Shown: positions 3,133 through 24,856 of the stretch, one piece after another
Layout: every line of letters begins with the position of its first letter
How positions within the stretch are numbered: position 1 is the first letter of the stretch
Assembly: GCA_965214565.1 (NCBI GenBank)
Contig: OZ243951.1
Coordinates: 1,017-65,016, forward strand
From: Candidatus Aldehydirespiratoraceae bacterium
Lineage (GTDB): Bacteria > Actinomycetota > Acidimicrobiia > Acidimicrobiales > Aldehydirespiratoraceae
Length of the DNA: 64,000 bases
Direction: 5' to 3'
Notes under the pieces: model-generated
Database searches by the model: none
What the model was told of the DNA's origin: nothing
What the model saw: only the letters and a program-made list of their open reading frames with translations
Made by a program: the position numbers and the translations under genes

Positions 3133-3134
3133 TG

Positions 3135-3162: not shown

Positions 3163-3170
3163 CATTGCTC

Positions 3171-5296: not shown

Positions 5297-5633
5297 CGAC
5301 GACACGACTGAGGATCTGAGCCTCCGAATGCGACAGATCCAGCGACTCCACCAGGTCGCCGAAGCGCAGATCCGTCTGATCCGAGTCGCCGCCGCCAACA
5401 GAATGCTCGGGTTCATCAACCGGAAGAAGTTCCGCCACCGGCACGCCGTAGAAATGCGACAGTCGCCACAGACGAGGAACAGAGACCGCGCGCTCACCAC
5501 GTTCATAGGCTCCCAGCACCGAAGCCTTGAACTCCTGGTTCGACATACCCTCGACTTCCTGCAGCGACAACTTCTTCGCCCGTCTGACGGTGCGAAGCGT
5601 CTCCCCCACCCTCTTGGAGTATTCGGCAATCAC
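5226..5633 (-). CDS. BldD-like XRE-family HTH transcriptional regulator (short form)
   Basis: IAEYSKRVGETLRTVRRAKKLSLQEVEGMSNQEFKASVLGAYERGERAVSVPRLWRLSHFYGVPVAELLP aligns by eye with the Streptomyces BldD N-terminal domain as I recall it (SSEYAKQLGAKLRAIRTQQGLSLHGVEEKSQGRWKAVVVGSYERGDRAVTVQRLAELADFYGVPVQELLP). GTG start forms a GTGA overlap with the dnaJ stop (5630-5633). Confidence 0.75.
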   Translation of the reverse strand: MIAEYSKRVGETLRTVRRAKKLSLQEVEGMSNQEFKASVLGAYERGERAVSVPRLWRLSHFYGVPVAELLPVDEPEHSVGGGDSDQTDLRFGDLVESLDLSHSEAQILSRVVARIGAALEAGSGPSPDESDPGSR

Positions 5634-6733: not shown

Positions 6734-6734
6734 G

Positions 6735-7847: not shown

Positions 7848-10800
7848 CTAGTCGTTGTCTTTGATGGTGCCGGTGGCGTAGGTGAAGTTGAAGATGGTGG
7901 TGAAGGTGCTCTCGTAGGCGTACATTCTGATTGTCTCGTCACCTTCAACTGTGTTGTCGTCGATGATCGGCACAACGATCTCGACTTGGGTTTCTCCTGG
8001 GTTGATCGTGAATGTCCGGTAGGGGATGGTGAAGTCTTGGTTGTATTTGGCGGTGATGTCGAACGCGCCGTAGCCGAGTTTGATTTCTTGGTCGCTGGCT
8101 CTTGAGAGCGTCGCGACGAAACGCAGCCCTTGGGGGTCGCCTTCAGAGGCCGAAGCGTCGGCCACGGTCAGGGTTATCGGGCCTGACTGGGCTGGGGCGC
8201 CGTTGGACGTGTCGCCGTCGGATGTGTCGGTGGTGTCGGCGGCTGGGGGATCGTCGTCGTCGGAGATCGTGACCGTGGCGGCACCGTTGTTCGACGACAC
8301 GGTGTAGCCGTTGCCAGAGTTGATGGTGGCGGTGACCGTCCCGTCGGGTTCGTCGGTGCTGTCGTCGTTAGTCGCGATGATGAGGGTGTAGGTGCCTGAG
8401 GTGGGGATGGTGACGGTCTGGGTGCCGGTCGACGCGAAATCACCGCTCTGGGTGATCTTGACGGTCACGTCGAGAGCAGCGGAGGGCGCGGGGTCGGCGG
8501 TGATCGTGAACGTTGCGTCGTCGCCTTCGGTGACGTCAGCGCTGGCAGTGATGCTGATCTCGGGGACGTCGTTGTCGGCGACTGCGACGGTCGCCGTGTT
8601 CTGTGTGGATGACACGGTGTAGCCGGCACCGGTGTTGATGGTGGCGGTGACCGTCCCGTCGGGTTCGTCGGTGCTGTCGTCGCCGGTGGCGACGGTGAGG
8701 GTGTAGGTGCCTGAGGTGGGGATGGTGACGGTCTGGGTGCCGGTGGACGTGAACGCGCCGGTTTGGGTGATCTTGACGGCCACGCTGAGTGCTGTGTGCG
8801 GTGCAGGATCCGCAGTGATCGTGAACGTGGCGTCTTCGCCTTCGGTGACGTCTGCGCCGGCAGTGATGACTATTTCGGGGACATCGTCGTCTGACACGGC
8901 GACGGTCGCCGCGCCCTGTGTGGACGACACCGTGTAGCCGGAACCAATGTTGATGGCGGCAGCAACCGTCCCGTCAGGCTCGTCGACGCTGTCGTCGGTG
9001 GTGGCCACGGTCAGCGTGTAGCTGCCTGTTGTGGGGATGGTGACGGTCTGGGTGCCGGTGGACGTGAACGCGCCGGTTTGGGTGATCTCAATGGTGACGT
9101 CGAGATCGGCTGTGGGTGCGGGGGCAGCGGTGATCGTGTACGTGGCGTCGCCGCCTTCGGTCACATCTGTGCCTGCGGTAATGCTGATTTCGGGTTCGAC
9201 GGGCGGTGGGGCCGGTTTGGCGGTTTGGGCTTGTTCGATGCATTCCAAAGCCTCCCGGAACGGCCGCCATCCCGACCAGCGGGTTTCGCTTTGGCTTGCC
9301 TCGGCCGCGGTGAACGGTTTGAGTTGGGTGTCGGCAATGTCGCCGAACGCGATGAGCACTCGACGCCAGTTCTTGCCGTAGCCCGGAGCGCGGTGCTTGT
9401 TGAGGTCGTAGTATCTGCGGGCGAGTTTCAGCGTGTCGTCAGGAACACATTCGGGTGGCACAGCGGGCGGGTCGCTGCTGGTTTCATCCTCACCGGAGAG
9501 GTCGACGGTCGTGGTGGCGGCGAGGCTATCGAGGTACACGGCGGTTCCGCTGTCGGTGTCATATCCAGGGGTGACAGTGACAGTGACCGTGACGGGTCCG
9601 GCGATGCCGTGATCGAGCGTGTGGCTGGTCGTGGCGATGCCGTCGAACACGCCGGCGGACTGTGCGGTTCCGTCGGCGGCTTCGGCGCTGTAGGCCACGA
9701 GGTACTTGTCAGCGTCCGCTACCGCATCCCAGGAAACGTCGACGCTGGTACCGCCGCCGGTTGCGAGCGTGAGGTTCGCGACGACCGCCGCCGGTTCCGG
9801 CGGCGCCTCGGCGGGCTGTGGGACATCCCGGGACGGGCTATTCTGCGGTGTGTGCTGGTTCGTGTACTGACGGCGCAAAAACGGACAGTCGGAGGGCCAA
9901 TGGAACCGGCCGCTGGAGACGTAATGGGTTTGTAGATTCAAGGTGTCCGCAGTGACGACCGGGGCGTTCGGGTTGCCCCACTCGCGCATATGCCATGTGT
10001 ACGGACCGCCGGGGGTCTGCTTAGAAAAGTACACCAGCCGATAAAACTTGGTGGAATCCAGGTCGCGGTACTGGCCGATCTCGAACTCCTTAGGATAGTG
10101 GCGGAACACCTCGCCGAGGCTGAACGCCCGCATCTTGTCCACCGTCGCCCGCCGGAACCCACCACCAGTCCCGGAATGCACCACGTCCGCGCACTGGGTG
10201 CCCTCAACGTGCAGACTGCGGGTGTTGTGCACCCAGATAACCCGATAACACTTCCACGAAATCCGTGTCTGCGTGTGCCGGTCACCACCGTAGCCACCGT
10301 CCCAACAACCCGCAGCAGTCGGCTCGCCGTCATGGAACGTGAACGTCAACGACTGTTGTGGCGTGCCGTTCCGCGTGAACGAGATCCCCGTGAACGTCAA
10401 CGGGTCATACCCGGCGATCTGAGTCACGTTGATCGTCACCGTCACATCACTCGCAGGTTGTGACGACAGGCGCACGAAATAGTCCAGCACCTCCCCCGGG
10501 GTGATATCAGGCGCAGGACCCAACCCCGGCGTCGACGTCAACGTGTTCGGGCGGAAAATCCCCCACCCGCGATTAGCCCGCTTATGCGCGTTGTACGCAG
10601 CCTCGTCATAGGTACGGCGATACTCGAACACCTCCAACTCCGGCGCGTCGGTCACCAACACCGACACAGTGCCCAGGCTGGAGCTGCTGTAACCGCCGCC
10701 GGACGCGGTCTGCGTCAAATTGAACCTCCGGTTGCGATTATCGCTGGGCTCGTCGACTGCGGTGACGGTAACCTGCTGTGGTTCGGTGTAGTTCGACGCC

Positions 10801-13800
10801 GTGAACGTCAGAGTCGCCGGACTGATCGTCGCCGCCCCCGAACCCACCGACTCGATCACCGTGAACGTCGACGGATCAAACACCGCCCGGCCCGCCGCGG
10901 TGCCGATTGTGACCGTCGTGGAGCCCCCCGACGGGGCGGTGGTCAACCGCACGCAGTAAGTGGTCTTGCCGCCGTTCTCGGTGATCCTGAGACTCGACAC
11001 GCTCAACACGGTGCTCTGCGCCGAGCAGGCCGAGGCGTCGTCGTCGTCGATGGTCAGATCCACCTCCGAGGACGCCGAGACGACCATCGCGCCGCCGCCG
11101 GTCACCACCGTCCCCGAACCCGTGCCCGTCACCACGTTCAACGTCGCGGTGATCTCCTCGTCGGAGGTATCGCCGTCGTCGCCAGCTGCGGTGGCGATCG
11201 GTGTGAGCGTCACCGTCGCGGTCTGCACGGTGTTGGAGTCCGAGCCGGTGAACGTCACCCGCGCCGTCGTCGAAGTCGCGTTGGCGAGCGCCACACCAGT
11301 GCCCGACGCGGTGACCGCGAAGTCCGGGGTGGCGTGGCCGGGCAGCCGGGCGCCGGTGCCCGAAGCCAGCGTGATCGTCGCCACCACCGACTCGCCCGAG
11401 ATCAGCGGGCGGCCCAACGACACCGTCAGCGTCGCGGTGTCAGAAGCGTCCTGCTCGCTCATGGCCGTGTCCGATGCCGTCAGCGTCACCTCGGTTGCCT
11501 CGTCGTCGGTGATCCGCACCTTGTCGGATCCGTTGGTGCCCGAAACGGTGTATGAGTCGGTGCTCGAGCAGCCAGCGGTGCTCGACGGCACCGCGGTGAC
11601 GGTGATGACGCTGTCCAAATCATCCGCAGCGGTGTCGGTCCACGCCACGTCGATCGACCCGGTCTGCACGCCGGCTTGGAAGCTGACGGTTTTGATGCCC
11701 TCGTCGGCTGCGGCGACCCGGTCAGTGTCGCCCGACTCTTCGACGCGCACGCATACCGTCAGAGCGGTCGCGGGCTGGGCGTCCAATGTCAGCGGGAACG
11801 AAACGGTGGCGTCGGCCTCGGACTTTTCGACCTCGTCGTCGTCGTTGCGGTTCTCGCCCTCGCCGGTCATCAGCCGCACTGAAACCTCAGGTCCCGTCGC
11901 GGAGGGGTCGATCTTGAACACCGGCGACATCGCCAACATCCGCAGCTCGGTGGTGTTTACCGTGTTTGCCGTGTGGTCGAGCGGCGTGTTGCCCAACGTA
12001 TCCATGCTTCCGAATCTGGGATTGCTGTCACCGAGTGTGTGGCCGCTCACCTCTACGCCGGCGTCGCTGCTGCCTGTCCAATAGATCGACATTTGCGCCG
12101 TGGCCGCTTCGTTGGTGGCGTGGCTTCTGTTGTTGGTGCCGGTGTCCCAGGAGGCGTCGTAGAAATCGAAATAGTTGTCGGCCACTTTGTCTGTCGACGG
12201 CGCAGCGAGCCAATAGATCTTGGTGCCGCTGTCCGAATCGCTGGTAGATCTATCGGTGTAGCCGCCTGCGTTGGAGTTCAGCGCCGGGTCCCACATGGCG
12301 GTGTTCTCGCGTGCATCCACGGTGGCGGTGCTGGCGATCACCGACACCAGCCCCGAGTAGGGCAACAGGGCGGCGTGGCCGTGCTCGGCGACCACCAGCT
12401 GGGCCCAGTCGTTGTAGGCGTCGATGTCGGTGGAGACGGCGGTGCGTCTCTGCGAAGTGATGAAGATCAGCCGGAACTCGTCGCCCGCGGACAAACCCGA
12501 CGGCGCCAACGCCCAGTCGGCTGCCACCTCAATATCGCCGGTGTCGTCGTCGACGAGTACGACGTTGATCGGGCCGCCGGTCTGCTCACCGACGTTGATG
12601 CCGCCGCTGGCGGTCGCGCCCGACCCGAAATCGACGATCACATACGGTTGGGTGCGGACATCATTATCAACCGGCGTCAACCGCAGCGTCGCCGTCGTCG
12701 CGCCCGCGGTGAACACCACCGCCGGATTCTGCGCCGAGTGCGGCCCCGACGTGTCCAACGCGACGCCGGTCTGCGTCGTCGGTGCCAACCCGAAGGTGTA
12801 ATCGGCAGTGACGGCCGCTCCGGTCACAGTCAAAGGCACCGTAAGCGTCTCAGAGCCGCTCAGCGGCCCGTCCAGCCTGAGGGTGATGGTGCGGTAGCCG
12901 GTGCTGTTGCCGGCGCCCTCCACCGCGTTGCCGTCGGCGTCGCCGTCAGAACCCAACATGGCCACGGCGACCGCCGAGGCGTCGTTATCGTTGACCCGCA
13001 CCTCAGCAGACGCAGCAGACGAGTCGATCCTGTAGTTGTCGCTGTTTTGCAGGGTAATGGTGATCGGCCCCGACGTCTCGACGATGAAATCCTCAACAGT
13101 CGGCACTGTGAACGTGGCCGAGCTCTGCCCCGCGGGCAGGGTGCGGGTGCGGTTCCCCTGCTGGCCCGCAGCAACGAAATCGGCGCCCGACGCGTCGGCG
13201 ATGCCCACGTTGACGGTGAGGTTGCGGTCTGGCGCGGTGCTGGCGGTGACGGTGAACTCTGCCGCGGTGCCCTCGGTGACCGCCGCGCCCGGCGTGATGC
13301 TCAGCGTCACGTCCTCGTCGTCGACGGTCGCCGCGACGCTGCCGGTTACCGACCCGTAATCGGCGCCCGACGACGAATGCGACAAAGTCACCGAATCATC
13401 GGTCAGATCAGTGTCATGCACGCCGCGCACCGTGACCTTGCGGCCGATATACCAGTTCGAAGCATCGAACTGCACCGAAGCCTGGTCGCCGTTCGTGCTG
13501 TCGTCGGCGTCGAGCGTCAACGTCGCCGATGTCTGGCCCGACACCGTCACCGTCACCGTCACCGTGCCCGACGGTTCCGTGGCGAGCCGCAGCCGATACG
13601 CAGCTGTGCCGCCCTCGTCCACCTCAACAGTGGACGGTACGACCAGACCCGGCGCCGTGCGGTCCTGATCCGCGATGTACAGCGTCGTTCGGTCAGGGGT
13701 TGCCGCGGTCGCCCGCGGCGTCTCACTGCTCGCGATCCTCACGACGATCGTCTCATCGGCTTCCTGCATGCTGTCAGCAATAATGGGAATGCTGATGGTG

Positions 13801-16800
13801 TGCGTGCCCGACGCGTTCCCCGAAGGGATCGTCACACTCGTCGACGGGGCGGTGTAGTCGCTGCCGTCAGTGGCGGTCCCCCCAAACGCCAGAGTCAAGT
13901 CGATTTGCTGCTCGGTTTGCTGGTTCAGCGTGAGATTCACATCGAAGGTGCCGCTGTCCTCAAGCACCCAATACTCCGGTTGCTCAAAACCGATCTCGAC
14001 GGCGTCATCGTCGATGATCGTCACAATCGTGACACCACGGGCCCGCAAATAGTCAGGCGAGGCAACGAGACCCACACGAAACGACTCCGAATCCTCGAAC
14101 ACCCCGTCCTCACGGGTCGCTACGTCAAAAGCCACCGACGTCTGCCCCGCGGGGATCATCACCGACGCCTCGCCCGCGGTGAAATCCTGCCCCGCGGTCG
14201 CACCGCCGCCCTCCTCGACGATGTAGGTGAGCGTCAGATCCGCGGTCGGCGCAGGACTGGCCATCAACGTCAACCTGACCGTCTCGCCCTCATTAGCCGA
14301 ACTATTTCCTCTAGTAAAGGCCACCTCCGGCATATCAGCCGACGCCACGGTCTTGACAATCTCCGACACCGCGTAGAACCGGTTCTCGCTGGCGGCCGCC
14401 TCAGTGCCAGACGACAAAGACTGCGACGCGCTGCCGCTGCCGACCCGCGCGCCTGGACCGTAAGCCGGCGTCGCGGTGCCCAGCGGGTTGGAGCTGGTGG
14501 TGCAGTTGTTGTTCATCCCCGTCCACACCTTCGCCCCGTCACCCACACTGCCGTCCTCGTGGCGCAACCGGGTGGCATCCGCAGACGACCACCGGCCGGT
14601 CCACGCCTGATTGCACAACCGCCAATAGCTCGACGACACCTGCTCGCCGCCCGTCCCCAGCCAATACAACACTGTCCCCGAGTCCCTCGCCCTCGTCGTG
14701 CCGTCGGCAAAGCCGCCCGAGCCGCCATTGGCCGACGTGTCCCAGATGCCGACGTGGTTGCGGCCGTCCACGGTCGCAGTCGACACGAACGCCCTGAAGA
14801 AGCCGACATAAGGCAGCAAATCATCCCCGCCGTTGGCGACCGCCGCAGCGCGCACGAAATGGTCGTAATCCGCGATGTCGGTCGACGTCGCCAGCCCGCC
14901 CTCAGACGTCATGAACATCAACCGGTACTCCGCATTGTTTAACACCGCAGGACGGAAAGCCGTGCCCGGCGGCAGCACGATGTCGCCCGTCTCGTCGTCC
15001 ACCAACACCACGCCGATCGGGCCGCCGGTCGGAGTGTCCAAAGTGACACCACCGGAGCCGCTGGGCGTGCCGTAATCGACGATCACATACGGCTGCGTGC
15101 GGTCCGAGTTGTTCACCGGCATCAAACGCAATGTCGCGGTCTGCGCCCCCGCCGCGAACACCACCGCCGGGTTCTGCGCGCTGTTCGAGCCGGATGTGTT
15201 CAGCGACACGCCCGTCTGCGTGCTCGGCTGCAACGCGAACGTGTAATCAGTCGCCACAGTCGCGCCGACGACTGTCAGCGGCACCGTCACCTGTTCCGAG
15301 CCGGTCAACGCCCGGCCCAGAGTGAGCGTGATGGTCCGGTAGCCGGTGGTGCCAGGGCCGCCCTCGACGGCGTTACCGTCGCTGTCGCCGTCAGAAGCAG
15401 ACATCGTGACCGCGACCGGCGGCGTGTCGTCGTCGGTGATCGTCACGGTGGTGGTCGCCGGCATGCCCACCGTGTAGCCGGTGCCGCTCGCCAGTGTCAT
15501 GGTGAAGGTCTCGTCGCCCTCCACCGTGCTGTCGTCGGTGATGTTGACGCTGAAGGTGTGAGACGTCATGGCGGCGGGGAACGTGAACGTTGTCGGCGGC
15601 GCGGTGTAGTCCGACGCCTCCGTCGCGGTCTCCGCCTGCGAGTCGAGGTTCACCGTCAACGCCGACGACGGCGCGCTGCTCGCGTTCACCGTCACATCAA
15701 CGCTGCCGCCGTCCTCCGCTGCGCTGTACGCCGCCGAAGCAAACGTCAGCTCCGGCGTCGCGGCGGCCTCGACTTTGAACACCGGCGACATGGCCAGCAT
15801 CGGCAACGAATCATCCGACATCGCAGATGTGTCAGACAGCGGATTGCCAAGCGAAACACGAGCAACCGACGGCATAGTCGCGCCAAGCCGACGCGTCATA
15901 TTTGGGTCTTTCCTCCCGTCGTGGATGTGGCTGCCAGTCCAGAACCCTGCCGTAACGGTACGCGCAGCACCCGACTCGACAGTGTCGGCGCCGGACTGGT
16001 CCGCGCCGCCGTCCCAGGAACCATCGAAGAAATCGAAATAGTTGTCCGCGACCTTGTCCGACGACGGCTCAGCCAGCCAGTACACCTTCACCCCGCTGCT
16101 CGACGCGTTCGCCGAGCCGTCAGCCCACGCGCTTCCCGTGTGCATGCCAGCATTGACACGGGCATCGACTGTTGTGGTGCTGCCCATCACCCGCACCAGA
16201 CCCGCGTAAGGCTTGAGGCCAGCGTGACCGCCCGCGGCGACCACGCCTTGGGCCCACTCGTTGTACACGTCAATATCGGTCGACTCCGCAGTCCGAGTCT
16301 GCGACGTGATGAACATCAACCGAAACTCATCACCCCCCGACAACCCCGACGGCAACAACGGCCAATCAGCAGCAACCTCAAAATCGCCCGTCTCGTCGTC
16401 CACCAGCACCACACCCACCGGGTCGCCCGACACGGCACCCAGCGCCGCACCCGACGCGCTCGGCGCCCGCGAACCAGTGCCGTAGTCGACGATCACATAC
16501 GGCTGTGTACGGACGTTGTTATCGACCGGCATCAAACGCAAAGTCGCGGTCTGCGCTCCAGATGCGAACACCACCGCCGGGTTCTGCGCGCTGTTCGTGC
16601 CCGATGTGTTTAGCGACACGCCGGTGTTCGAGCCGCTCAGCCCGAAGGTGTAGTCATTGCTCGCGCCGACCGTCGCACCGGTCACAGTCAACGGCACCGT
16701 AACCGACTCACTACCGGTGAGCACCCGACCCAACGTCAAGGTGATGGTCCGATACCCCGTCGCGCCGCTGGCGCCTTCCACAGCGTTGCCGTTGGCATCA

Positions 16801-19800
16801 CCATCAGACCCCGCCATCGACACGGTGACAGGTCCGGGGGCTTTGATCGTGAAATCCGCGGACAGCGACGCTCCGTAAGGAACCGCCTTGGTCGCGGACA
16901 GCGACCGGCGCAACAGCCGACGGCCGACGTTGAGGGTGACTGGGTCATCGGCGGTGATCGCCGACCCCGAATACGACAGCACCACCTCCAAAGAACGATG
17001 CTTGGGCTGGCCGTGTACGTCGCTCATGGCCGCACCGAGCTCGGCACTGTTGACCGTCAACCCTGTCGGCGCCCCGGTGAACGTCAACAACGCCAGACCC
17101 GAAGCCGTCAACGATCCGCCGCTTCGCAGATTCCCGGCGCCTCGGTCGCCGCCTTCGGGTCCTAAGCCGTCGCCGTCGCCGACGCCGAAGAACGTGACAT
17201 GCTCAGGCGTCAAGGTGAGCGTGACAGTGCCGCCGCTGGCGAACGCGGACGACTGCACCTGCGCGGGTGTGACGCCCAGCGTCGGGGTCGTGTCGGTGTC
17301 AGCCACCCGCACCGTCACATTCCCACTCAACGCGTTGAAATCGTTGTCCGACGACGACGTGCTGTGCGAAATCGTCACCATCCGCGCCCCGCCGGTGTTG
17401 ATGGTGTTGTCGTCCACACCCGAAACCGTGACCTCTTGTCCGGTGTCCCAGTTCGTTGTCGTGAACGTCAACGAAGCCGGGTTGACCGCCGCGCCCACTG
17501 CCGCGGTGATCGCCACCGTCACATCCGCCGACGGCGCCTTGTTCAACTTCACCTCGTAGGTGTCGGTGTGGCCCGATTCCTCGCTCACCGCCACCCCCTC
17601 GCCGACGTCGAACACCAAGGCAGCCGACGGCACCACCGTGACATCCACCTGCGGCCCGACCATGTTCACCGGATACCTCGAACTGGCAGTACCCGCCGAG
17701 CTCGACACAGAATGGGTGACACCCCCGGCGCCTCCGCTGCCCCCGTTGATCGTGACGGTTTGTGCAGACATCCAGTTGCCGGCGTTGAACGACACGGTCA
17801 CGGGACTGACAGTCAGACTGCCGGAACTGTTGACAGCAGTGACATGCAACGTCACCGCGCCGCCCGGGTTGCTCGCCAACCGGATCCCGTACTCGGCGGT
17901 GTCGCCCTCATTCACCGACACCGCAACCGGCACAACCACAATCTTGTGACCGGCGTCGACGGTGGTCGCGGTCACGCTGTTGATCGGAATCTGGTGATAC
18001 GGGTTGCCAGCATCCGATACCTCCGCCGCATGGGAGACGGTGACAGTCTCCGCGGCGGAGTCGCCGTCGTTGACGGCGCGCAGCGTCACCGTCTGCGCCG
18101 AGCTCCAGTTCCCGGTATTGCCGTGAGTGAAAGTCAGCATCGACTGGTCGCCGGCCATGTCGCTGTCGGTGTCCACCGCCACCGCCGTCGCGTCGCCCGA
18201 GGACACCGTCACCACCACATTCGCGCCCGGATCAGAGTCGAGCACCACCGTGTAGGACATCTCCGCATCAGTGGCGTGAAGCTCAGTCAAAGTGACAGCA
18301 GACCCAGAAAGCGTCACACCAGCGGTGCCGTCGTCGTCGTCGGTGAGGGTGATCGTGGTCTCGGCGGTGCTGCCTGCCCGGGCGTCGACGGCGAGGGTGC
18401 CGTCGAGCTGCACTTTGAACGTTTCGGTGCTCTCGGCGGTGCCGTCATCCACCAGGTCGATGGTGAGGGTCTTGGTCGTGTCGCCGGTGGCGAATTCGAG
18501 GTAGCCGGACTGGGCGGTGTAGTCGGTCGGGTGGGCTGCGGTGCCATCCGCGGTGGTCCAGTAGATCGACAGGGGCACCGCTGTGGTCCCGGTCTTGGTG
18601 ACGGTGACGCCGATTGTGCCTGCGTCCTCGGCAGCGACGGCCGTCGCCGAGGCGAACGCGACGTTGGGCAGGTCGGCTTTGTCGGTGATGATGCCGATGC
18701 CTGTGCTCTTGCCGGCGGCGAGGCCCGGCGCGTCGGTGCCCGTCGGGGTGCCGAGAGTGACCCGGAAGTAGTGGTCGCCCTCATAGGTGCTGTCGTCGGT
18801 GGTCGCCACGGCGATGGTCGCGGTGGTGGCGCCCTGGGCGATGGTGACGCTGCCGGCGGTGTCGGCGAAATCAGAGGCGTCGGCGACGATGTGAGCGGGG
18901 TCGGTGGCGATGCCAAGGCCGTGGGCGAAGGTGTAGGGCACGGTGATGCCCCCGGTGGGGGCGGCCTCAGACATCGTCACGGTGAAGCTGACCGCGCTGC
19001 CTTCGGCTGCGCGAGAACGCGGCGTGATCTCCACAGCGCCGCCGACCACCTCGAACACAGACGTGGACAGCGCGTACAGCGGGCGCATCTCGGTGGCGGG
19101 CTCTGCGTCGGTGCAGGCCGGCGTCCGGGCGCGTATCGGCCCCAGCGGCGAGAACCTGCTGGAGTCGTTGCCGTCGAGCTTGCCGACGTGCACATTCGGT
19201 TCGCCGACCTGGCCCCGGTTGTGACCGCCAGTGCCGCCGGAGCAGAAGGCGTGGTTCGTTCGGTGGCCCTCCTCGGTACCGCCGGTCCAGTAACCGTCGG
19301 TATCGACAGTCGCGGCGGTGCCGTCGGCGTGGCGCGGCGACTCGCTGTCCCACGTACCGTCGATGAAATCGGGGCTGGCGTTGTCGGCGACCTTGTCGCC
19401 GCCCACCCAGTAGATCGGGTCGTTCGGCTGAACTCCCTCGTCGATCCGGTACATGTTGAACTGCGCCCGGTCACGGGCGCCGTAGGTTCCGGTTCCCCCC
19501 CCGTCGCCGAGGGTCGTGACGAGCCCGAAGAACGACTCGGCGTGCGGGACGAGCTCGGGGACGCCGCCGCCTTTGAGCTGGGCGCCGGTGATCTCGGCGC
19601 GCACGAAATCGTCGTAGACGGACCCTTGACGGCTGGTGGCGGCGGTCTCGCCGTTGGTGACATACAGCAGACGGAACGTGTCACCGACACCGACGCCCGA
19701 CGGCAGCAGCGGCCAGTCGAGGGGCACCTCGACGGTCTCTCCTGTGCTCGGCGGGGCCGCGTCGTCGTCTGCGATGCCGTACCAGGCTTGCGCGTCGGCC

Positions 19801-22508
19801 TGCGCTGCGGTGACGCCTCCGCCGAGGTTCGTTTGGGGGTTGAGATGTCTCTGCGGGGAGAACACTTTGCCGTCGTCGGTATAGTTGCGCACCGACTGGA
19901 GACCGCGGGGGAAGCTGATGTGGAACTCCTCGTCGGAGACGTCGCCGTCGTCGAAACCGTCTCGGGTTTTCAGCACGATCGTCGCGGTCTGGGCGCCGGC
20001 GCCAGCGAACTCCAGCCAGCGGAACCCGACATGCGCGGGCGTGTACCGGTTCACCGCCTCCACCGACACGCCCGTGCCGACAGCGGCCATCTCGAAATCG
20101 TTGTGATGGACCGGCCACGCCACGTTCGCGCTGTAACGCGGCCCACGAACCGAGCTGACCACATCGCACGCCACGTAATCCGCCCACCGCTCCAGCGACT
20201 CATCGCTCCAGTCTTGGAGGTTCAGGTCGCATTTCACATCAGGGTTCTGGCGATGCCCGGTCGCCTCCAGATACAACGGCACCCGCACCCACTCGTTCGC
20301 TGTGAGGGCGCGACCCAAGCTGATCGTCAGAGAACGGTCCACCCGAGTGGCGTCCCCCTCCACCATCACCTCAGAAATCTGGGTGCCCGAGGGGCTGGTA
20401 CGCACCCCTGTCCCGGCCATCGACACCTCGGTCGGGTCGTCGTCCACCAGCGTTAGGGGGTGGCTCACGTCGCCGATGCTGGCGTAGTTGCCGGCGCCGG
20501 TGACGGCGTGCGTGATCGTCAGCCCGATATCAGCCGCATCAGCATCGTTGTCCTCCGCCGACACCGTCACCGTCTGCGGCATGGGCCAATTCGACGGTGT
20601 GAACGTCAAAGAGGCGCCCGTCGTGATCGTCGCTTTGGTGGTGTCGCTGCTCGACACCGCCACGGTCACATTCGAGGTCGGCGCCGCGGAAAGCCGCACC
20701 TCATAGGAGTAGTCGCCGCCTACGGTGACGACCTTCTCCTCGATGTCGTATAACACGATACTGCCTTGCGTCCTCTCGACCACCGGCACGTTCTCGACGA
20801 TGTCTCCCTCCAAAAGCCGACCCCCGCCGTTGTCGATGACCGCGAGGCCTGCCTCCGCCTCGTTGAGCGTGATGCGATACAAGCGCTCAGCGAGACGCAC
20901 CGGCCCACAACCATCGCCAGAGCACACACCACCCGCCAAGTTCGTTGTGATGTGGTTCCCCTTCCACGGATCCGACGTCGGATAAGTCCTGACCACCAGA
21001 TTGTTGGTCGCGGTGTCACCGTCGTCAGTAGCCGCGGTCACCACCACCGTCGCCTCAGCCGCGGACGGTCCCGTGAACCTCAACTCGCCCGTCGCGCCAT
21101 CGGCCGAATCCGCATACGCCACGCCTTGCGGGCTGCCGTCGAGCGACAGCGAGAAATGCGTGCCCAGCGTCGCGCCCTGAAACGCGAGCGGCACCGTCAG
21201 CATCTCCCCCGCTGCCAGCCCACGACCCAACGTCACCCGGAACTTCGCGGTGTCCGTGCTGCTGCCCTCGGTCGCGACCTGGTCCGTCGTCGCGGCGTGA
21301 TGCAACTCGATCTCGGTCACCTCGTCGTCGCCGGTCACCGTCAACGGCACATCCGGCAACACGATGCCCGTGTATTCCGTCGGCACGGTGCTCGTGTTCG
21401 GGCACTTCACCGTCTGGGGTCCCAAGCCGACATCGATGCGGCAGTTGGTCGTGTCGTAGTAGTCCTCGTCGTACTGATAGACCGTGAACACAAGATTGCC
21501 CGACAGCTCCCCGCCAGGAGTGTCCACCGCATTGTTGAACGCCGCAATTGACACCTCGAACTCCGACACCCACTCATCTTGCTCAACCGTGCCGCTTCCG
21601 TCGACGTCGAGTCCGGTGCCGTCGGGGATGTTGACTCCGTCCAGGTTGATCGAGAACGCGTGACGAGGCGTCGTGGGACCCGCCCCCGCGTGCTGGGCGA
21701 AACCGCCCCTGATGTTCGCGATCGGCGTTTCAGTCCCCAGCTTGCCCATCGTCGTCGTATCAACGAGGCCCACCACCACGATGCTCTGAGTCGGACGGCT
21801 CTCATAGGGAATGGTGACCGTGATGGTGTCGGACACGTCGCGGTTGTCGTTGTTGGTGAGCCGCTCCATCATCGTCGTCGAGCCACCGCTCACAGTGATC
21901 GACGCCCCCGTCCCGGTCAGCGTCGTGTCCGACACATCGGTGATCGTCACCGTCCAATCACCCAAAACCGTGCCGCCCTCACAATCAGCGGTCGTACACA
22001 GCTGTACCCCGAACGTCTCATCATCAGAATCGCCGTCGGAATGGGCCTCCACCTCGAAACGCAGACGCTCGCGCAAAGAGTTCACAGACGCCCGGCGCCC
22101 CTCACCCGCCGCGACCTCAACCAGACCATCGCGACGCCAATGAACCTTGAACGTGATATCCGACGGTTCGGCCGTGTACCCCGTCAAAGGCTTGAAAAAC
22201 ACGTAATACGCCGGACGATCCGGCAAATTCGAAATCTCGAACTGGCGAGTCTGACCCTCCTCGATCACCGTGCGATGCAAAAACGCCCGGCTATACGCCG
22301 ACACGCCCGACGAGCCCGCCGACTGCGCCGCAGCCTCAGAAACCCCCAGACCCGCACCCGACAACACCGGAACCGGTGCCACCACCAACAACGACGCCAA
22401 CAGCGCCACCGCCAAGCCGCACACCAACCCCCGACGGCCAACCCGCGACCGAACGAGAAAGGCTAAGCCCCCCCCCCCCCCCCGCAGGAGAAGACCCAAA
22501 CACACCAC
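7848..22508 (-). CDS. giant secreted Calx-beta / beta-sandwich repeat protein (4,886 aa), adhesin- or surface-layer-like
   Basis: One uninterrupted 14,661-nt ORF. The N-terminus has a basic stretch (RSRVGRRG), a hydrophobic core (LAVALLASLLVVAPVPVL) and AAAQ. Many Calx-beta-type motifs are present, for example ITDDSTVEGDETFTMTL, IIDDNTVEGDETIRMYA, LVDDGTAESTETFKVQL and TTDDSTYEGDHYFRVTL. Other beta-sandwich repeats carry an LTFT..NW...QTVTV signature. Composition is acidic and rich in T/A/V/G. I saw no LPXTG, SLH, RTX or C-terminal TM segment. Confidence 0.9.
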   Translation of the reverse strand: MVCLGLLLRGGGGGLAFLVRSRVGRRGLVCGLAVALLASLLVVAPVPVLSGAGLGVSEAAAQSAGSSGVSAYSRAFLHRTVIEEGQTRQFEISNLPDRPAYYVFFKPLTGYTAEPSDITFKVHWRRDGLVEVAAGEGRRASVNSLRERLRFEVEAHSDGDSDDETFGVQLCTTADCEGGTVLGDWTVTITDVSDTTLTGTGASITVSGGSTTMMERLTNNDNRDVSDTITVTIPYESRPTQSIVVVGLVDTTTMGKLGTETPIANIRGGFAQHAGAGPTTPRHAFSINLDGVNIPDGTGLDVDGSGTVEQDEWVSEFEVSIAAFNNAVDTPGGELSGNLVFTVYQYDEDYYDTTNCRIDVGLGPQTVKCPNTSTVPTEYTGIVLPDVPLTVTGDDEVTEIELHHAATTDQVATEGSSTDTAKFRVTLGRGLAAGEMLTVPLAFQGATLGTHFSLSLDGSPQGVAYADSADGATGELRFTGPSAAEATVVVTAATDDGDTATNNLVVRTYPTSDPWKGNHITTNLAGGVCSGDGCGPVRLAERLYRITLNEAEAGLAVIDNGGGRLLEGDIVENVPVVERTQGSIVLYDIEEKVVTVGGDYSYEVRLSAAPTSNVTVAVSSSDTTKATITTGASLTFTPSNWPMPQTVTVSAEDNDADAADIGLTITHAVTGAGNYASIGDVSHPLTLVDDDPTEVSMAGTGVRTSPSGTQISEVMVEGDATRVDRSLTISLGRALTANEWVRVPLYLEATGHRQNPDVKCDLNLQDWSDESLERWADYVACDVVSSVRGPRYSANVAWPVHHNDFEMAAVGTGVSVEAVNRYTPAHVGFRWLEFAGAGAQTATIVLKTRDGFDDGDVSDEEFHISFPRGLQSVRNYTDDGKVFSPQRHLNPQTNLGGGVTAAQADAQAWYGIADDDAAPPSTGETVEVPLDWPLLPSGVGVGDTFRLLYVTNGETAATSRQGSVYDDFVRAEITGAQLKGGGVPELVPHAESFFGLVTTLGDGGGTGTYGARDRAQFNMYRIDEGVQPNDPIYWVGGDKVADNASPDFIDGTWDSESPRHADGTAATVDTDGYWTGGTEEGHRTNHAFCSGGTGGHNRGQVGEPNVHVGKLDGNDSSRFSPLGPIRARTPACTDAEPATEMRPLYALSTSVFEVVGGAVEITPRSRAAEGSAVSFTVTMSEAAPTGGITVPYTFAHGLGIATDPAHIVADASDFADTAGSVTIAQGATTATIAVATTDDSTYEGDHYFRVTLGTPTGTDAPGLAAGKSTGIGIITDKADLPNVAFASATAVAAEDAGTIGVTVTKTGTTAVPLSIYWTTADGTAAHPTDYTAQSGYLEFATGDTTKTLTIDLVDDGTAESTETFKVQLDGTLAVDARAGSTAETTITLTDDDDGTAGVTLSGSAVTLTELHATDAEMSYTVVLDSDPGANVVVTVSSGDATAVAVDTDSDMAGDQSMLTFTHGNTGNWSSAQTVTLRAVNDGDSAAETVTVSHAAEVSDAGNPYHQIPINSVTATTVDAGHKIVVVPVAVSVNEGDTAEYGIRLASNPGGAVTLHVTAVNSSGSLTVSPVTVSFNAGNWMSAQTVTINGGSGGAGGVTHSVSSSAGTASSRYPVNMVGPQVDVTVVPSAALVFDVGEGVAVSEESGHTDTYEVKLNKAPSADVTVAITAAVGAAVNPASLTFTTTNWDTGQEVTVSGVDDNTINTGGARMVTISHSTSSSDNDFNALSGNVTVRVADTDTTPTLGVTPAQVQSSAFASGGTVTLTLTPEHVTFFGVGDGDGLGPEGGDRGAGNLRSGGSLTASGLALLTFTGAPTGLTVNSAELGAAMSDVHGQPKHRSLEVVLSYSGSAITADDPVTLNVGRRLLRRSLSATKAVPYGASLSADFTIKAPGPVTVSMAGSDGDANGNAVEGASGATGYRTITLTLGRVLTGSESVTVPLTVTGATVGASNDYTFGLSGSNTGVSLNTSGTNSAQNPAVVFASGAQTATLRLMPVDNNVRTQPYVIVDYGTGSRAPSASGAALGAVSGDPVGVVLVDDETGDFEVAADWPLLPSGLSGGDEFRLMFITSQTRTAESTDIDVYNEWAQGVVAAGGHAGLKPYAGLVRVMGSTTTVDARVNAGMHTGSAWADGSANASSSGVKVYWLAEPSSDKVADNYFDFFDGSWDGGADQSGADTVESGAARTVTAGFWTGSHIHDGRKDPNMTRRLGATMPSVARVSLGNPLSDTSAMSDDSLPMLAMSPVFKVEAAATPELTFASAAYSAAEDGGSVDVTVNASSAPSSALTVNLDSQAETATEASDYTAPPTTFTFPAAMTSHTFSVNITDDSTVEGDETFTMTLASGTGYTVGMPATTTVTITDDDTPPVAVTMSASDGDSDGNAVEGGPGTTGYRTITLTLGRALTGSEQVTVPLTVVGATVATDYTFALQPSTQTGVSLNTSGSNSAQNPAVVFAAGAQTATLRLMPVNNSDRTQPYVIVDYGTPSGSGGVTLDTPTGGPIGVVLVDDETGDIVLPPGTAFRPAVLNNAEYRLMFMTSEGGLATSTDIADYDHFVRAAAVANGGDDLLPYVGFFRAFVSTATVDGRNHVGIWDTSANGGSGGFADGTTRARDSGTVLYWLGTGGEQVSSSYWRLCNQAWTGRWSSADATRLRHEDGSVGDGAKVWTGMNNNCTTSSNPLGTATPAYGPGARVGSGSASQSLSSGTEAAASENRFYAVSEIVKTVASADMPEVAFTRGNSSANEGETVRLTLMASPAPTADLTLTYIVEEGGGATAGQDFTAGEASVMIPAGQTSVAFDVATREDGVFEDSESFRVGLVASPDYLRARGVTIVTIIDDDAVEIGFEQPEYWVLEDSGTFDVNLTLNQQTEQQIDLTLAFGGTATDGSDYTAPSTSVTIPSGNASGTHTISIPIIADSMQEADETIVVRIASSETPRATAATPDRTTLYIADQDRTAPGLVVPSTVEVDEGGTAAYRLRLATEPSGTVTVTVTVSGQTSATLTLDADDSTNGDQASVQFDASNWYIGRKVTVRGVHDTDLTDDSVTLSHSSSGADYGSVTGSVAATVDDEDVTLSITPGAAVTEGTAAEFTVTASTAPDRNLTVNVGIADASGADFVAAGQQGNRTRTLPAGQSSATFTVPTVEDFIVETSGPITITLQNSDNYRIDSSAASAEVRVNDNDASAVAVAMLGSDGDADGNAVEGAGNSTGYRTITLRLDGPLSGSETLTVPLTVTGAAVTADYTFGLAPTTQTGVALDTSGPHSAQNPAVVFTAGATTATLRLTPVDNDVRTQPYVIVDFGSGATASGGINVGEQTGGPINVVLVDDDTGDIEVAADWALAPSGLSAGDEFRLIFITSQRRTAVSTDIDAYNDWAQLVVAEHGHAALLPYSGLVSVIASTATVDARENTAMWDPALNSNAGGYTDRSTSDSDSGTKIYWLAAPSTDKVADNYFDFYDASWDTGTNNRSHATNEAATAQMSIYWTGSSDAGVEVSGHTLGDSNPRFGSMDTLGNTPLDHTANTVNTTELRMLAMSPVFKIDPSATGPEVSVRLMTGEGENRNDDDEVEKSEADATVSFPLTLDAQPATALTVCVRVEESGDTDRVAAADEGIKTVSFQAGVQTGSIDVAWTDTAADDLDSVITVTAVPSSTAGCSSTDSYTVSGTNGSDKVRITDDEATEVTLTASDTAMSEQDASDTATLTVSLGRPLISGESVVATITLASGTGARLPGHATPDFAVTASGTGVALANATSTTARVTFTGSDSNTVQTATVTLTPIATAAGDDGDTSDEEITATLNVVTGTGSGTVVTGGGAMVVSASSEVDLTIDDDDASACSAQSTVLSVSSLRITENGGKTTYCVRLTTAPSGGSTTVTIGTAAGRAVFDPSTFTVIESVGSGAATISPATLTFTASNYTEPQQVTVTAVDEPSDNRNRRFNLTQTASGGGYSSSSLGTVSVLVTDAPELEVFEYRRTYDEAAYNAHKRANRGWGIFRPNTLTSTPGLGPAPDITPGEVLDYFVRLSSQPASDVTVTINVTQIAGYDPLTFTGISFTRNGTPQQSLTFTFHDGEPTAAGCWDGGYGGDRHTQTRISWKCYRVIWVHNTRSLHVEGTQCADVVHSGTGGGFRRATVDKMRAFSLGEVFRHYPKEFEIGQYRDLDSTKFYRLVYFSKQTPGGPYTWHMREWGNPNAPVVTADTLNLQTHYVSSGRFHWPSDCPFLRRQYTNQHTPQNSPSRDVPQPAEAPPEPAAVVANLTLATGGGTSVDVSWDAVADADKYLVAYSAEAADGTAQSAGVFDGIATTSHTLDHGIAGPVTVTVTVTPGYDTDSGTAVYLDSLAATTTVDLSGEDETSSDPPAVPPECVPDDTLKLARRYYDLNKHRAPGYGKNWRRVLIAFGDIADTQLKPFTAAEASQSETRWSGWRPFREALECIEQAQTAKPAPPPVEPEISITAGTDVTEGGDATYTITAAPAPTADLDVTIEITQTGAFTSTGTQTVTIPTTGSYTLTVATTDDSVDEPDGTVAAAINIGSGYTVSSTQGAATVAVSDDDVPEIVITAGADVTEGEDATFTITADPAPHTALSVAVKITQTGAFTSTGTQTVTIPTSGTYTLTVATGDDSTDEPDGTVTATINTGAGYTVSSTQNTATVAVADNDVPEISITASADVTEGDDATFTITADPAPSAALDVTVKITQSGDFASTGTQTVTIPTSGTYTLIIATNDDSTDEPDGTVTATINSGNGYTVSSNNGAATVTISDDDDPPAADTTDTSDGDTSNGAPAQSGPITLTVADASASEGDPQGLRFVATLSRASDQEIKLGYGAFDITAKYNQDFTIPYRTFTINPGETQVEIVVPIIDDNTVEGDETIRMYAYESTFTTIFNFTYATGTIKDND
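8250..9194 (-). repeat. three tandem 315-bp (105-aa) Calx-beta-like repeats
   Basis: Units span 9194-8880, 8879-8565 and 8564-8250. Each begins PEI(S/V)ITA..DVTEG.DATFTITA.PAP and ends ATV.VSDDDV. The exact 315-nt period is confirmed by the antisense ORFs starting at 8392 and 8707, which are nearly identical; a third antisense ORF at 9031 repeats the same peptide from its fifth residue, 9 nt in from the extrapolated unit position 9022. Confidence 0.9.
11907..12971 (-). repeat. internal module D (355 aa)
   Basis: VAVAMLGSDGDADGNAVEG...YRTITLRLDG...RTQPYVIVDFG...DEFRLIFITS...IYWLAAPSTDKVADNYFDFYDASWD...IYWTGSSD...MLAMSPVFKID. Confidence 0.85.
14352..15416 (-). repeat. internal module C (355 aa)
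   Basis: VAVTMSASDGDSDGNAVEG...YRTITLTLGR...RTQPYVIVDYG...EYRLMFMTS...VLYWLGTGGEQVSSSYW...VWTGMNNN...FYAVSEIVK. Its DNA is very similar to module B over the first half. Confidence 0.85.
15768..16829 (-). repeat. internal module B (354 aa)
   Basis: VTVSMAGSDGDANGNAVEG...YRTITLTLGR...RTQPYVIVDYG...DEFRLMFITS...VYWLAEPSSDKVADNYFDFFDGSWD...FWTGS...MLAMSPVFKVE. Confidence 0.85.
19044..20429 (-). repeat. internal module A (divergent, 462 aa): beta-sandwich plus endostatin/DUF1554-like unit
   Basis: Starts EVSMAGTG. Contains WPLLPSGVGVGDTFRLLYVTN...YWVGGDKVADNASPDFIDGTWD...YWTGGTEEG. Ends LYALSTSVFEVV. Confidence 0.7.
22468..22483 (-). repeat. homopolymeric tract, C16 on the plus strand (G16 in the gene sense)
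   Basis: Counted directly: ggctaag + 16 c + gcaggag. As annotated it lies in codons 9-14 of the giant ORF (R-G-G-G-G-G). Confidence 0.95.
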
Positions 22509-22682
22509 GACAAGCGGAGAAGCTCACACGACCACTCAAACGGCTCAACATCCCAAACTCCTCAACTCCACAGAACCTGCAACGAACGAAGCATTGTAAC
22601 AGCCCGGCAATTCAACGCGACCAGCGGTCCGTACCGCCCGCGACGCAACACGAAGCGACGCAGCCACGACTGCACTCGGCCC

Positions 22683-24467
22683 TCAATCGTGAAGCTGCAA
22701 AGCTGAAATGAACGCTTCTTGGGGGATGTCGACCCGACCAATCGACTTCATCCGCTTCTTGCCACGCTTCTGCTTTGCCAGCAGCTTGTTCTTGCGCGTG
22801 ACGTCACCGCCGTAGAGCTTGGCGGTGACGTCCTTGCGAAACGCCCGCACCGTGCAGCGGGCGATGATCTTCCCACCGATCGCCGCCTGGATCGGCACCT
22901 CGAACTGCTGGCGCGGGATCAACTCCTTGAGCTTCTCCGCCATCTTCTTGCCGTAACTGTAGGCGTTGTCTCTGTGGACGATGGTGCTGAACGCGTCGAC
23001 AGCCTCCCCGTGCAGCAGCACGTCCACACGCACGAGGCTGTTGACCACGTAACCGTCCGGTTCGTAGTCGAGGCTGGCATAACCCTGCGTGCGGCTCTTG
23101 AGCTGGTCGAAAAAGTCGATGACGACCTCCCCGAGCGGCAGCCGGTAGATGATCTCAACACGTTCGGGCGACAAGTACTCCATCTTCACCATCTCGCCGC
23201 GACGACCCTGGCACAAGTCCATGACCGCCCCCGTGTAGTGCGACGGTGTCAACACGCTCACCTTCAGGTACGGCTCGGCGATGGAACTGATCTCACCGGC
23301 CGGCGGAAGATCCGACGGGTTCGACACGACAACGCTGCTGTTGTCGCTGCGGGTGACGCGGTACTCCACGGACGGCGCGGTCGAGATCAGCGACAGGCTG
23401 AACTCCCGCTCGAGGCGTTCACGCACGATCTCCATGTGAAGCAGGCCCAGGAAGCCGCAACGGAACCCGAATCCCAGAGCGCCCGACGTCTCAGGCTCGT
23501 AGGTGAAGCTCGAATCGTTGAGGCGCAGCTTCTCAAGCGCCTCCCGAAGGTCGGTGAACTCGTCGCCCTCGATCGGATACAACCCGGAGAAGACCATCGG
23601 CTTGGGTTCCGCATAACCGTCTAGGGGCTCAGCAGCCGGGTTCTTGTCGGTGGTCACAGTCTCGCCCGAGCGGGCCTCGCCGACGTCCTTGATCCCCGCT
23701 ATCAGATAACCGGTCTCTCCGGGACCGAGTTCATCTACCGGTTGATTGTCTGGAGTGCGCACGCCGATCTCGTCGGGATCATGGGTTGTCCCCGCATGCA
23801 TGAATCGCAGCTTCGACTTCGACGACATGACACCGTTGACCACACGGACCGACGACACGACGCCCCGGTACTGATCGAAGTGAGAGTCGAAGATCAGGGC
23901 CTGCAACGGGTCGGCCGCGCTGCCCCGGGGGCAGGGTGTGGTCGCCACCACCGCGTCCAGAAGCTCCACCACACCCTCACCGGTCTTCGCGGAGATGTGC
24001 AGGACGTCCTCTGCCGGTATGCCGAGCACCTGCTCGATCTCAGCCGCGTACTTGTCGGGCTCCGCAGCGGGGAGGTCGATCTTGTTGAGGCAGGCGACGA
24101 TCTCCATCTCGTTCTCCATCGCCAGATAACAGTTCGCCAGGGTCTGGGCCTCGATCCCCTGTGCAGCGTCGACCACCAGGATCACGCTCTCACACGCCGC
24201 CAGCGAACGGCTGACCTCGTAACCGAAATCAACATGTCCCGGCGTGTCGATGAGGTTGATGATGTGGTCGCCCCACTCGAGTCGGACCGACTGGAGCTTG
24301 ATGGTTATCCCCCGCTCCCGCTCCAATTCCATGGAGTCGAGGTACTGGGCACGCATGTCCCGGAGGTCAACCGCGCCGGTTAGTTCCAACAGACGGTCGG
24401 CGAGTGTCGACTTGCCATGATCAATGTGGGCGATGATCGACGTGTTGCGTATGCGCTCAAGCTCCAT
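22683..24467 (-). CDS. lepA: translation elongation factor 4 (LepA)
   Basis: [23 protein letters not shown]1 motif, [12 protein letters not shown], and the LepA C-terminal domain. Start set at the internal ATG (24467, MELERIRN...) to match normal LepA N-termini; the ORF extends to 24563. Confidence 0.95.
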
Positions 24468-24583
24468 CTGCCACGAAACGATACCCGCCACAGTTCCAAA
24501 CAGACCCGAACGACCGGTGGTGCGATCCGGTGAGCGGGGCCGATACGCTTGTCGGTCGTTCAACCGATCACCAGCAGGTAACC

Positions 24584-24850
24584 GTGGCCAATATCAAGTC
24601 GCAGATCAAGCGCAACCGACAGAATCTGAAACGCCATCAACGCAACCGGGGCGTACGTTCAGAGATCAACACCCGTACCCGGACAGCGCTCGAAGCCATC
24701 GACAACGACACCCCAGACGCTGACGAGGCAGTGCGCCTCGCCGTCAAGCGCATCGACAAGGCCGCCCAGAAGGGCGTGCTCCACAAGAACACCGCGGCAC
24801 GCAACAAGCGCCGCCTAGTTCGCAGGCTCAACGCCCGGGACGAGGGCTGA
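24584..24850 (+). CDS. rpsT: 30S ribosomal protein S20
   Basis: GTG start giving (M)[20 protein letters not shown]..., about 88 aa and basic. Divergent from lepA, as in many Actinobacteria. Confidence 0.9.
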
Positions 24851-24856
24851 CGACCG

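Follow-up and report, generated by a model that had tools for sequence, protein, structure and literature searches.

A G16 tract at the 5' end of a giant Calx-beta gene in Candidatus Aldehydirespiratoraceae is a candidate hypermutable switch

Introduction

What does a run of sixteen identical bases do at the 5' end of a gene for a giant, probably secreted protein? The window studied here, by which we mean the whole stretch of 64,000 nucleotides (nt) analysed from a Candidatus Aldehydirespiratoraceae bacterium (assembly GCA_965214565.1, contig OZ243951.1, positions 1,017 to 65,016), contains on its minus strand an open reading frame (ORF) for a giant Calx-beta protein, and G16 stands near the beginning of that frame, just before the region that encodes a putative signal peptide. 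Phase variation through simple sequence repeats is textbook biology for pathogens and a few commensals. Here we ask whether this tract belongs to the same class of elements, and we argue, at a probability of roughly 0.6 and on comparisons among related sequences, that it is a contingency locus, i.e. a slippage-prone, hypermutable repeat that switches the giant Calx-beta gene.

Results

The tract in the window

Direct counting confirmed exactly what the sequence-only reading of this DNA had claimed, namely that the plus strand at 22468-22483 consists of sixteen consecutive C, which on the sense strand of the giant ORF 7848..22508 (-) reads as G16. Such a run is far beyond chance: under a model of independent, identically distributed bases the window should hold 0.0016 G/C runs of 16 or more. 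Homopolymers appear in fact to be otherwise avoided in these 64 kb, since only two runs of 8 or more are observed against about 11 expected under the same model. The runner-up is a C8 on the plus strand (G8 in sense) at 19495-19502, which also belongs to the giant gene; it is located some 3 kb behind the start of the coding sequence and is in frame as assembled. Homopolymers of about 8 or more are regarded as long enough for slippage to be frequent at a contingency locus, and this one has sixteen bases. When translated from GTG 22508 the giant frame begins VVCLGLLLRGGGGGLAFLVRSRVGRRGLVCGLAVALLASLLVVAPVPVL, and in this frame the tract does encode, as had been read before, an R (codon 9) and five G (codons 10-14), behind which come a basic n-region and then a hydrophobic core.

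Tracts of different length at the same end of related genes

A profile was run against genomes sampled at one per species and gave 44 related loci, all of them from uncultured metagenome-assembled genomes (MAGs) whose names point to sponge symbionts. The Acidimicrobiia among them are Ca. Poriferisodalis, Poriferisocius, Spongiisociaceae and Aldehydirespirator, the Chloroflexota are Dehalococcoidia and Tepidiformaceae, and the Gammaproteobacteria are Pseudohongiella and Pseudomonadales; by amino-acid identity the nearest relatives of the window are L001 (90%), L019 (80%) and L002 (75%). Four loci have the homologous domain inside a longer ORF and another is cut by a contig end; of the 39 left after their subtraction, 35 have at least one homopolymer of G or C, 9-23 nt long, in the zone from -400 to +40 of the match start. 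These 5' zones hold 46 tracts in 17.2 kb compared with 7 in 460 kb of flanks, an enrichment of about 164-fold, and L028 is the only locus of the family that shows neither a homopolymer nor the repeat array described below. Two of the seven outlying tracts belong to the second copy of a 5' cassette in L020, three more are orthologous runs of G10, G11 and G10 near ORFs derived from insertion sequences, and the association with the 5' end is not weakened by the tracts that lie outside it. The three orthologous runs (L022 4315-4324, L029 4302-4312 and L043 4269-4278) are found about 1.5 kb 5' of the family gene, and by eye the ORFs beside them resemble transposase fragments of insertion-sequence origin.

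Within the subgroup of the window the tract sits at one aligned position and is 16, 13, 12 or 11 bases long, the relatives having G13 (L001), GGA followed by G12 (L019) and G11 (L003, a paralogue of L019; both are from OZ220472.1). In L002 there is a G9 and then, 24 nt further on, a C10; both stand just 5' of a good ATG start (MRVVWGVSFVL..., 6000-6042) and might form, in DNA or RNA, a hairpin of 9 G:C pairs. An artefact of sequencing or assembly had been left open by the sequence-only reading, and against it stands the position that the relatives share across assemblies of Illumina style and of long-read style. Tracts are present both in contigs named in the manner of MEGAHIT and SPAdes (Illumina) and in chromosome-scale contigs of long-read style, which excludes an artefact of any single technology. 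The two-colour Illumina poly-G artefact was considered as well and rejected on the unique flanks, the conserved position, the occurrence of poly-C and the long-read-style assemblies. A protein collection, from which the species of the window is absent, yielded seven distant homologues at 37-48% identity. Contigs retrieved for four of these contribute additional loci (L045-L048) with tracts of C22, G13 plus G19, C8 and C23; these additions included no same-strain pair, L009 and L045 being 92.7% identical. A 30-mer common to the window, L001, L019 and L002 had no exact match in JGI metagenome contigs, and a protein-profile scan of the same contigs found no relative.

Length differences are concentrated in the tracts themselves. 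Five sequences (L017, L020, the second copy in L020, L025 and L027) are about 95% identical over 280 nt and carry two tracts, which in this order measure 15, 15, 19, 13 and 12 for the first and 12, 10, 10, 14 and 7 for the second, and the sole other difference in length among them is a single T beside the first tract. Moreover, the two L020 cassette copies (~3010-3520 and ~5890-6400), which span promoter, leader, second tract and signal peptide over about 500 nt, are 100% identical except for G19 vs G15. The upstream one heads a truncated fragment of 261 residues (aa), which is followed by a 504-aa ORF that looks HipA-like by eye. Other groups of relatives differ as C12/C13, G9/G11/G14 and C21/C22. 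Between the paralogues L019 and L003, whose proteins are about 52% identical to the query, the DNA of the leader and signal region (~5920-6300) is 72-84% identical and the sequence further upstream is unrelated; this 5' region suggests either an exchange or a strong conservation of a modular cassette. In several loci the tract and an adjoining 40-100 nt are tandemly duplicated, which leaves two tracts in series (L008 ~5950-6050, L030 ~5780-5985, L036 ~5600-5850 and L022/L029/L033/L043 ~5790-5900). The duplicated 40-100 nt lie 3' of the tract in L008 and group D and 5' of it in L030 and L036, and the copies in L036 flank a run of N that may be an assembly problem.

The repeats of this family are also found in other arrangements. 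The promoter-like sites of L017, L020 and L025 have the first tract as their entire spacer (TTGACT-17-GATAAT, TTGACG-18-GATAAT and TTGACT-16-GATAAT, respectively), each scoring 10 out of 12 where shuffled sequences would give 0.0-0.2 such sites, and the spacers of the L020 copy with G19 (22 nt) and of L027 (15 nt) fall beyond the usual working range. Other members have poly-C 4-200 nt 5' of a clear start codon. Homopolymers are absent from the gammaproteobacterial members, in which the corresponding 5' position is occupied by perfect (AGCCG)n arrays (Table 1); these sit between a promoter-like TTGACG..CACAAT and the ATG of the signal peptide, and two of them, in L034 and L035, come from one genome and differ in copy number. 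Considering that three slippage-prone kinds of repeat are found at the same end of one gene family in three phyla, we would argue that mutability itself is the property under selection.

Start codons, leader and reading frames

Two candidate starts, ATG 22551 and GTG 22508, lie upstream of the tract, and because the tract separates both of them from the signal peptide, any one-base change in its length alters the frame. ATG 22551 had been overlooked in the sequence-only reading; it is in another frame than the giant ORF, reads into the tract and meets it one base out of register with that ORF. It is the best-signalled start in the window and is probably the one used. The former assignment of the start to GTG 22508, which put the tract at codons 9-14, depended on a GTG without a Shine-Dalgarno (SD) sequence and gives way to this better-signalled ATG; indeed a start at GTG 22508 is doubtful, both for its missing SD and for its position inside what would be a translated leader. 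The in-frame lengths derived from it, 16 +/- 3n, have to be replaced likewise, as with a start at ATG 22551 they become 15 +/- 3n and the assembled G16 is out of frame. At G15 or G18 the ATG 22551 frame is joined to the giant ORF, and at G17 or G14 it halts at a TAG directly after the tract.

Three features of the leader suggest that it is translated. The leader peptides of the window and L001 align in the ATG frame only, with a score of 28 vs 11-23 for the other frame pairs (28 was reached by 29 of 2000 shuffles), and the aligned residues use synonymous codons, such as TGT and TGC for Cys and GGT and GGC for Gly. An equivalent leader, MWFRGR(D/E)VSSG..GDVGSRLN, is carried by L001, L019 and L003, and six of the eight substitutions among these three fall at third codon positions (binomial estimate p ~0.02). 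Their leader begins 8 nt 3' of a TAnnnT hexamer, which suggests that the messenger RNA of these three loci is leaderless or nearly so. In the window the pyrimidine motif CTTCTCC occurs twice within the leader, at 22486-22492 and 22521-22527 (-), and is complementary to the GAGGAG of the SD and, if G-U pairs are allowed, to the G tract; in the minimum-energy fold the SD and the tract each pair with one of the two copies. The RNA fold of 22400-22590 is no more stable than those of shuffled sequences (z = 0.05) and no Rfam family matched at an E of 1 or better within 22250-22750, and on these two results a structured cis-regulatory RNA was rejected.

We then compared the frame of the leader with that of the body, i.e. 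the giant ORF behind the tract. In 4 of 12 cases (L025, L010, L046 and L002) the leader ATG and the body share a frame, which is about what chance would give; the two are out of frame in the window, L001, L019, L003, L017, both copies of L020 and L027. Every body ORF that fits within its locus stays open for more than 7 kb. An ordinary, constitutively translated poly-Gly coding tract is excluded, because only these 4 of 12 leaders are in frame while the bodies remain intact. Two options are left: either these are phase-variable genes that were mostly caught OFF, or the body has a start of its own downstream of the tract and the leader forms an independent upstream ORF.

The giant protein and its genomic setting

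Calx-beta is the sole recognisable domain type of the giant protein (Pfam PF03160, E=2.1e-64, 215 bits vs a cut-off of 27, in six stretches), and its N-terminal region is uncharacterised and all-beta. A match in NCBIfam is restricted to the Calx-beta part of the Na/Ca exchanger (NCX) model and falls far under the cut-off of that model; for the N-terminal region a PDB sequence search gave no match, and an AF2 model from an alignment of eight sequences is all-beta at a pLDDT of 57.8, too poor for a fold search. The homologues P0001-P0007 begin with equivalent signal peptides. The signal-peptide-like N-terminus, the Calx-beta repeats and the all-beta model point to a protein that is exposed at the surface or interacts with the host, with a surface location being probable.

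The giant gene sits between lepA and hrcA-dnaJ (HrcA and DnaJ by Pfam, downstream), and its surroundings at 5630-7742 and 22683-25894 form a housekeeping neighbourhood of holA-like, lepA, giant gene, hrcA and dnaJ. In the orthologues L001 and L019 the upstream genes are unrelated to those of the window and homology begins about 20 nt before the leader ATG. The features of the locus are collected in Table 1.

Table 1. Coordinates of the features discussed; positions are those of the window unless a locus is named.
Feature	Position	Strand	Basis
G16 homopolymer (C16 on the plus strand), candidate slippage tract	22468..22483	-	direct count; the aligned G tracts of L001, L019 and L003 differ in length
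Giant ORF, 4886 aa, 14,661 nt, uninterrupted, GTG start 22508	7848..22508	-	translation
SD-like GAGGAG, 6 nt 5' of ATG 22551	22558..22563	-	read from the sequence, inferred from consensus
-10-like TACAAT (TAnnnT), ~42 nt 5' of ATG 22551, without a good -35	22593..22598	-	by eye; weak
Leader frame from ATG 22551, MLSRLSGRVSFSACRGVFGSSPA, entering the tract	22484..22551	-	translation and alignment with the L001 leader
TGA closing the ATG 22551 frame at G16; the 71-codon ORF overlaps the signal-peptide region out of frame	22336..22338	-	translation
GTG GTG, sole starts 5' of the tract in frame with the giant ORF at G16; no purine-rich SD	22503..22508	-	
TTG GTG, residues L28-V29 of the GTG 22508 frame; possible internal starts 3' of the tract	22422..22427	-	
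Signal-peptide-like region: n-region RSRVGRR, core LVCGLAVALLASLLVVAPVPVL, then GVSEAAAQ	22326..22451	-	translation
lepA, upstream neighbour	22683..24563	-	Pfam GTP_EFTU and LepA_C
(AGCCG)n, 35.8 copies	L034 5732-5910		
(AGCCG)n, 17.8 copies	L035 5825-5913		
(AGCCG)n, 18.8 copies	L041 4903-4996		
(AGCCG)n, at least 27 copies	L032 1-136		

Discussion

Taken together, the conserved position with varied lengths, the strong 5' enrichment, the indels confined to tracts and the promoter-spacer tracts lend strong, if indirect, support to the idea of a slipped-strand switch that the sequence-only reading had put forward, and it is the start and frame assigned there that did not hold. We propose that mispairing of slipped strands during replication would add or remove G in the tract and would thereby toggle whether the giant secreted Calx-beta protein is expressed, heritably yet reversibly. 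Transcription would begin 5' of the GAGGAG SD sequence, and ribosomes would start at ATG 22551 and read a 23-codon leader into the tract, the length of which would set the frame in which they exit. The gene would be ON at G15, G18 or G12, lengths at which the leader would be read through into the signal peptide and the 4886-aa body. At G16 (the assembled length), G13 or G19 translation would continue out of frame over the signal-peptide region to the TGA, and this state would be OFF, or would give whatever the SD-less GTG 22508 yields, and at G17 or G14 ribosomes would stop at the TAG right behind the tract. That slippage takes place in living populations and acts on the level of the protein is what these comparisons would lead us to expect.

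Several points weigh against this reading. All four members of the subgroup of the window are out of frame with their leader ATG, and the same pattern is expected if the leader is never fused to the body; a good start is found 3' of the tract in L002, L003, L005, L024, L026 and L030/39/42, and a scan of the window with the sigma-70 consensus found no full promoter at this 5' region. Our comparisons of length are between species or paralogues rather than strains, and in Cutibacterium acnes comparable tracts are reported to vary slowly with clades and not actively (PMC4746626). The closest assemblies look like long-read ones, in which a homopolymer of 16 nt may be off by one, and homopolymers of such length are miscounted on every sequencing platform (PMC9187656). 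Low-coverage records of long-read style (L045, L046 and L048, with contigs named ctg..._14x and _8x) show giant genes split into pieces, for example into consecutive ORFs of 414 + 66 + 95 + 2186 aa, a caution that records of this kind often contain indel errors of one base or real frameshifts. Because of such miscounts and of the split genes in these low-coverage relatives, the OFF call for the window at G16 is fragile.

The main rival to a frameshift switch starts the giant protein downstream, at TTG 22427 or GTG 22424, so that the tract lies in a 5' untranslated region (UTR) or leader and the ATG 22551 frame is a separate upstream ORF. Under such a start the giant ORF would not be frameshifted, and the length of the tract would still be regulatory, tuning expression by whether the upstream ORF ends before the giant ORF, overlaps it or is fused to it. 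In its favour, GTG 22424 is conserved in L001, L019 and L003, L019 has no in-frame start of any kind 5' of its tract, the GTG that group-B loci have 3' of the second tract is replaced by an ATG in their relative L026, and the 4 of 12 leaders in frame are at chance level. In L003 (~6017-6025), moreover, the TGA of the leader overlaps an in-frame ATG (cTTGATGg) right after G11, an arrangement typical of stop/start coupling; the equivalent sequence in the window is CTTAGCC, with a TAG stop in one frame and no ATG. A downstream start would nevertheless delete the whole of RSRVGRR, the basic n-region that follows the tract and precedes the hydrophobic core and whose protein sequence is conserved, and neither TTG 22427 nor GTG 22424 is preceded by a properly spaced SD. 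The leader of L010 and L046, with its SD and ATG, has stayed in frame with the body despite G9 vs G19 and further indels, which suggests that in these two loci the fusion is selected. We regard the downstream start as unlikely, if still the explanation most to be reckoned with beside the frameshift switch.

Slippage could also occur in the RNA rather than the DNA. Long homopolymers cause transcriptional slippage in bacteria. If RNA polymerase slips on the tract, the messenger RNA would contain mixed numbers of G, all three frames would be present and the DNA length would matter little, so that slippage would set a low, constant output or give alternative N-termini. This would explain why 8 of 12 assemblies are out of frame with genes intact over more than 7-14 kb, and transcriptional slippage is named beside replication slippage in a study of Bifidobacterium breve (PMC9187656). 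It leaves unexplained the tracts that form promoter spacers, the interchangeable use of poly-C and poly-G on the sense strand and the pentanucleotide arrays in gammaproteobacterial 5' UTRs, and it is compatible with switching at the DNA level, as the two can coexist; as the whole explanation we think it improbable. The least probable account is that the tract has no switching role at all and is an artefact of sequencing or assembly, a neutral by-product that mutation or recombination left at the 5' junction of a mobile cassette, or a fixed G-quadruplex or i-motif element of which the length has no use. It is true that the 5' cassette is modular (duplicated in L020, with tandem units in L008, L030 and L036), that L001 and L019 have other genomic contexts than the window, that by established chemistry G16 could in principle form a quadruplex, and that homopolymer length is error-prone in all sequencing technologies. 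Yet independent assemblies from two kinds of assembler fill the same position, the 5' zones are enriched 164-fold while homopolymers are depleted elsewhere, and three repeat solutions occur across three phyla; lengths down to G9-G13 and the occurrence on either strand are at odds with a single fixed quadruplex, and neither the fold energy (z = 0.05) nor Rfam supports a structured element.

The proposed frameshift switch has close parallels among known systems, including in high-GC actinobacteria, for which the sequence-only reading had wrongly supposed that none was known. In B. breve UCC2003 a G tract in the sortase-dependent pilus genes bbr_0113 and bbr_1889 acts as an ON/OFF switch through replication slippage, as shown by maximum-depth sequencing and in mice, and these genes are annotated out of frame in the reference genome (PMC9187656). 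As in the window, this is a high-GC actinobacterium with an animal host, and the tract lies early in a gene for a surface structure, where it parts the start and signal portion from the body and its length decides on translation. The two cases differ in that the first pilus gene of B. breve has G10-G12 and the window a longer G16, in that the tract of the window stands before the hydrophobic core of the signal peptide and that of B. breve after it, and in that a switch has been measured for a pilin, whereas the 4886-aa Calx-beta protein is known from its sequence alone. In C. acnes (Propionibacterium), 54 variable tracts were found, 96% of them G/C and some at genes for dermatan-sulphate adhesins (PMC4746626). 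This too is an actinobacterium (about 60% GC) in which genes for putative surface adhesins have G/C tracts at their 5' end, either in the UTR or in the coding sequence, and in which the lengths differ between lineages. Its variation follows clades and was read as slow accumulation, whereas the family of the window has tracts on nearly every member across phyla and a 100% identical duplicate within one genome already differs in length.

Outside the actinobacteria, the Neisseria pilC gene reportedly has a poly-G tract within the sequence for its signal peptide, and frameshifts there turn expression ON or OFF. It shares with the window a G homopolymer in the signal-peptide-coding region of a gene for a surface or adhesion protein, and differs in belonging to a Gram-negative pathogen with canonical mismatch repair, in its ordinary gene size and in having no separate conserved leader peptide. 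Homopolymer switches in promoter spacers are known from Neisseria porA and opc and from the poly-C of Bordetella fim, and similar to these, the relatives L017, L020, L025 and L027 have G12-G19 as the whole spacer of TTGAC(T/G)-GATAAT, with spacings of 15-22 nt that straddle the functional range of 16-18. This geometry is found in the relatives only; the tract of the window lies 3' of a start codon and has no promoter consensus on its flanks. Switches made of multi-nucleotide repeats are represented by (CTCTT)n of Neisseria opa and by (AGAT)n in the 5' UTR of Moraxella uspA2, and resemble the 18 to 36 copies of (AGCCG)n between promoter-like site and ATG in L032, L034, L035 and L041, although the repeat unit and the organisms are others and (AGCCG)n is not present in the window.

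In the literature that we searched we found no description of phase variation, contingency loci or homopolymers in sponge symbionts, and what appears to be new here is this setting, the device itself being of a known kind. Calx-beta proteins are enriched in sponge-associated Acidimicrobiia, and the work on these symbionts makes no mention of homopolymers or phase variation (PMC11706023). The sponge aggregation factor, the cell-recognition complex of the host, is itself built from Calx-beta domains, and a variable display of Calx-beta proteins by symbionts would for this reason be biologically suggestive. At slightly less than even odds, we extend our proposal to a contingency system that spans the holobiont, in which giant Calx-beta proteins of Acidimicrobiia, Chloroflexota and Gammaproteobacteria would be equipped with modular hypermutable 5' cassettes, the repeat being either a homopolymer that serves as promoter spacer, as part of a translated leader or as both, or a pentanucleotide array. 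If this is true, sponge symbionts would gain their first described contingency-locus system, the switch architecture of which would have arisen convergently or spread horizontally over three phyla. Symbiont populations would then keep generating cells with different combinations of host-facing proteins ON, and if the giant proteins switch stochastically, the symbionts within a single sponge would be mosaics of surface types. Such a system would bear on how giant genes that seem frameshifted or oddly started are annotated in MAGs and on the functional heterogeneity that consensus assemblies conceal, and on how symbionts may escape phagocytosis and recognition by their host.

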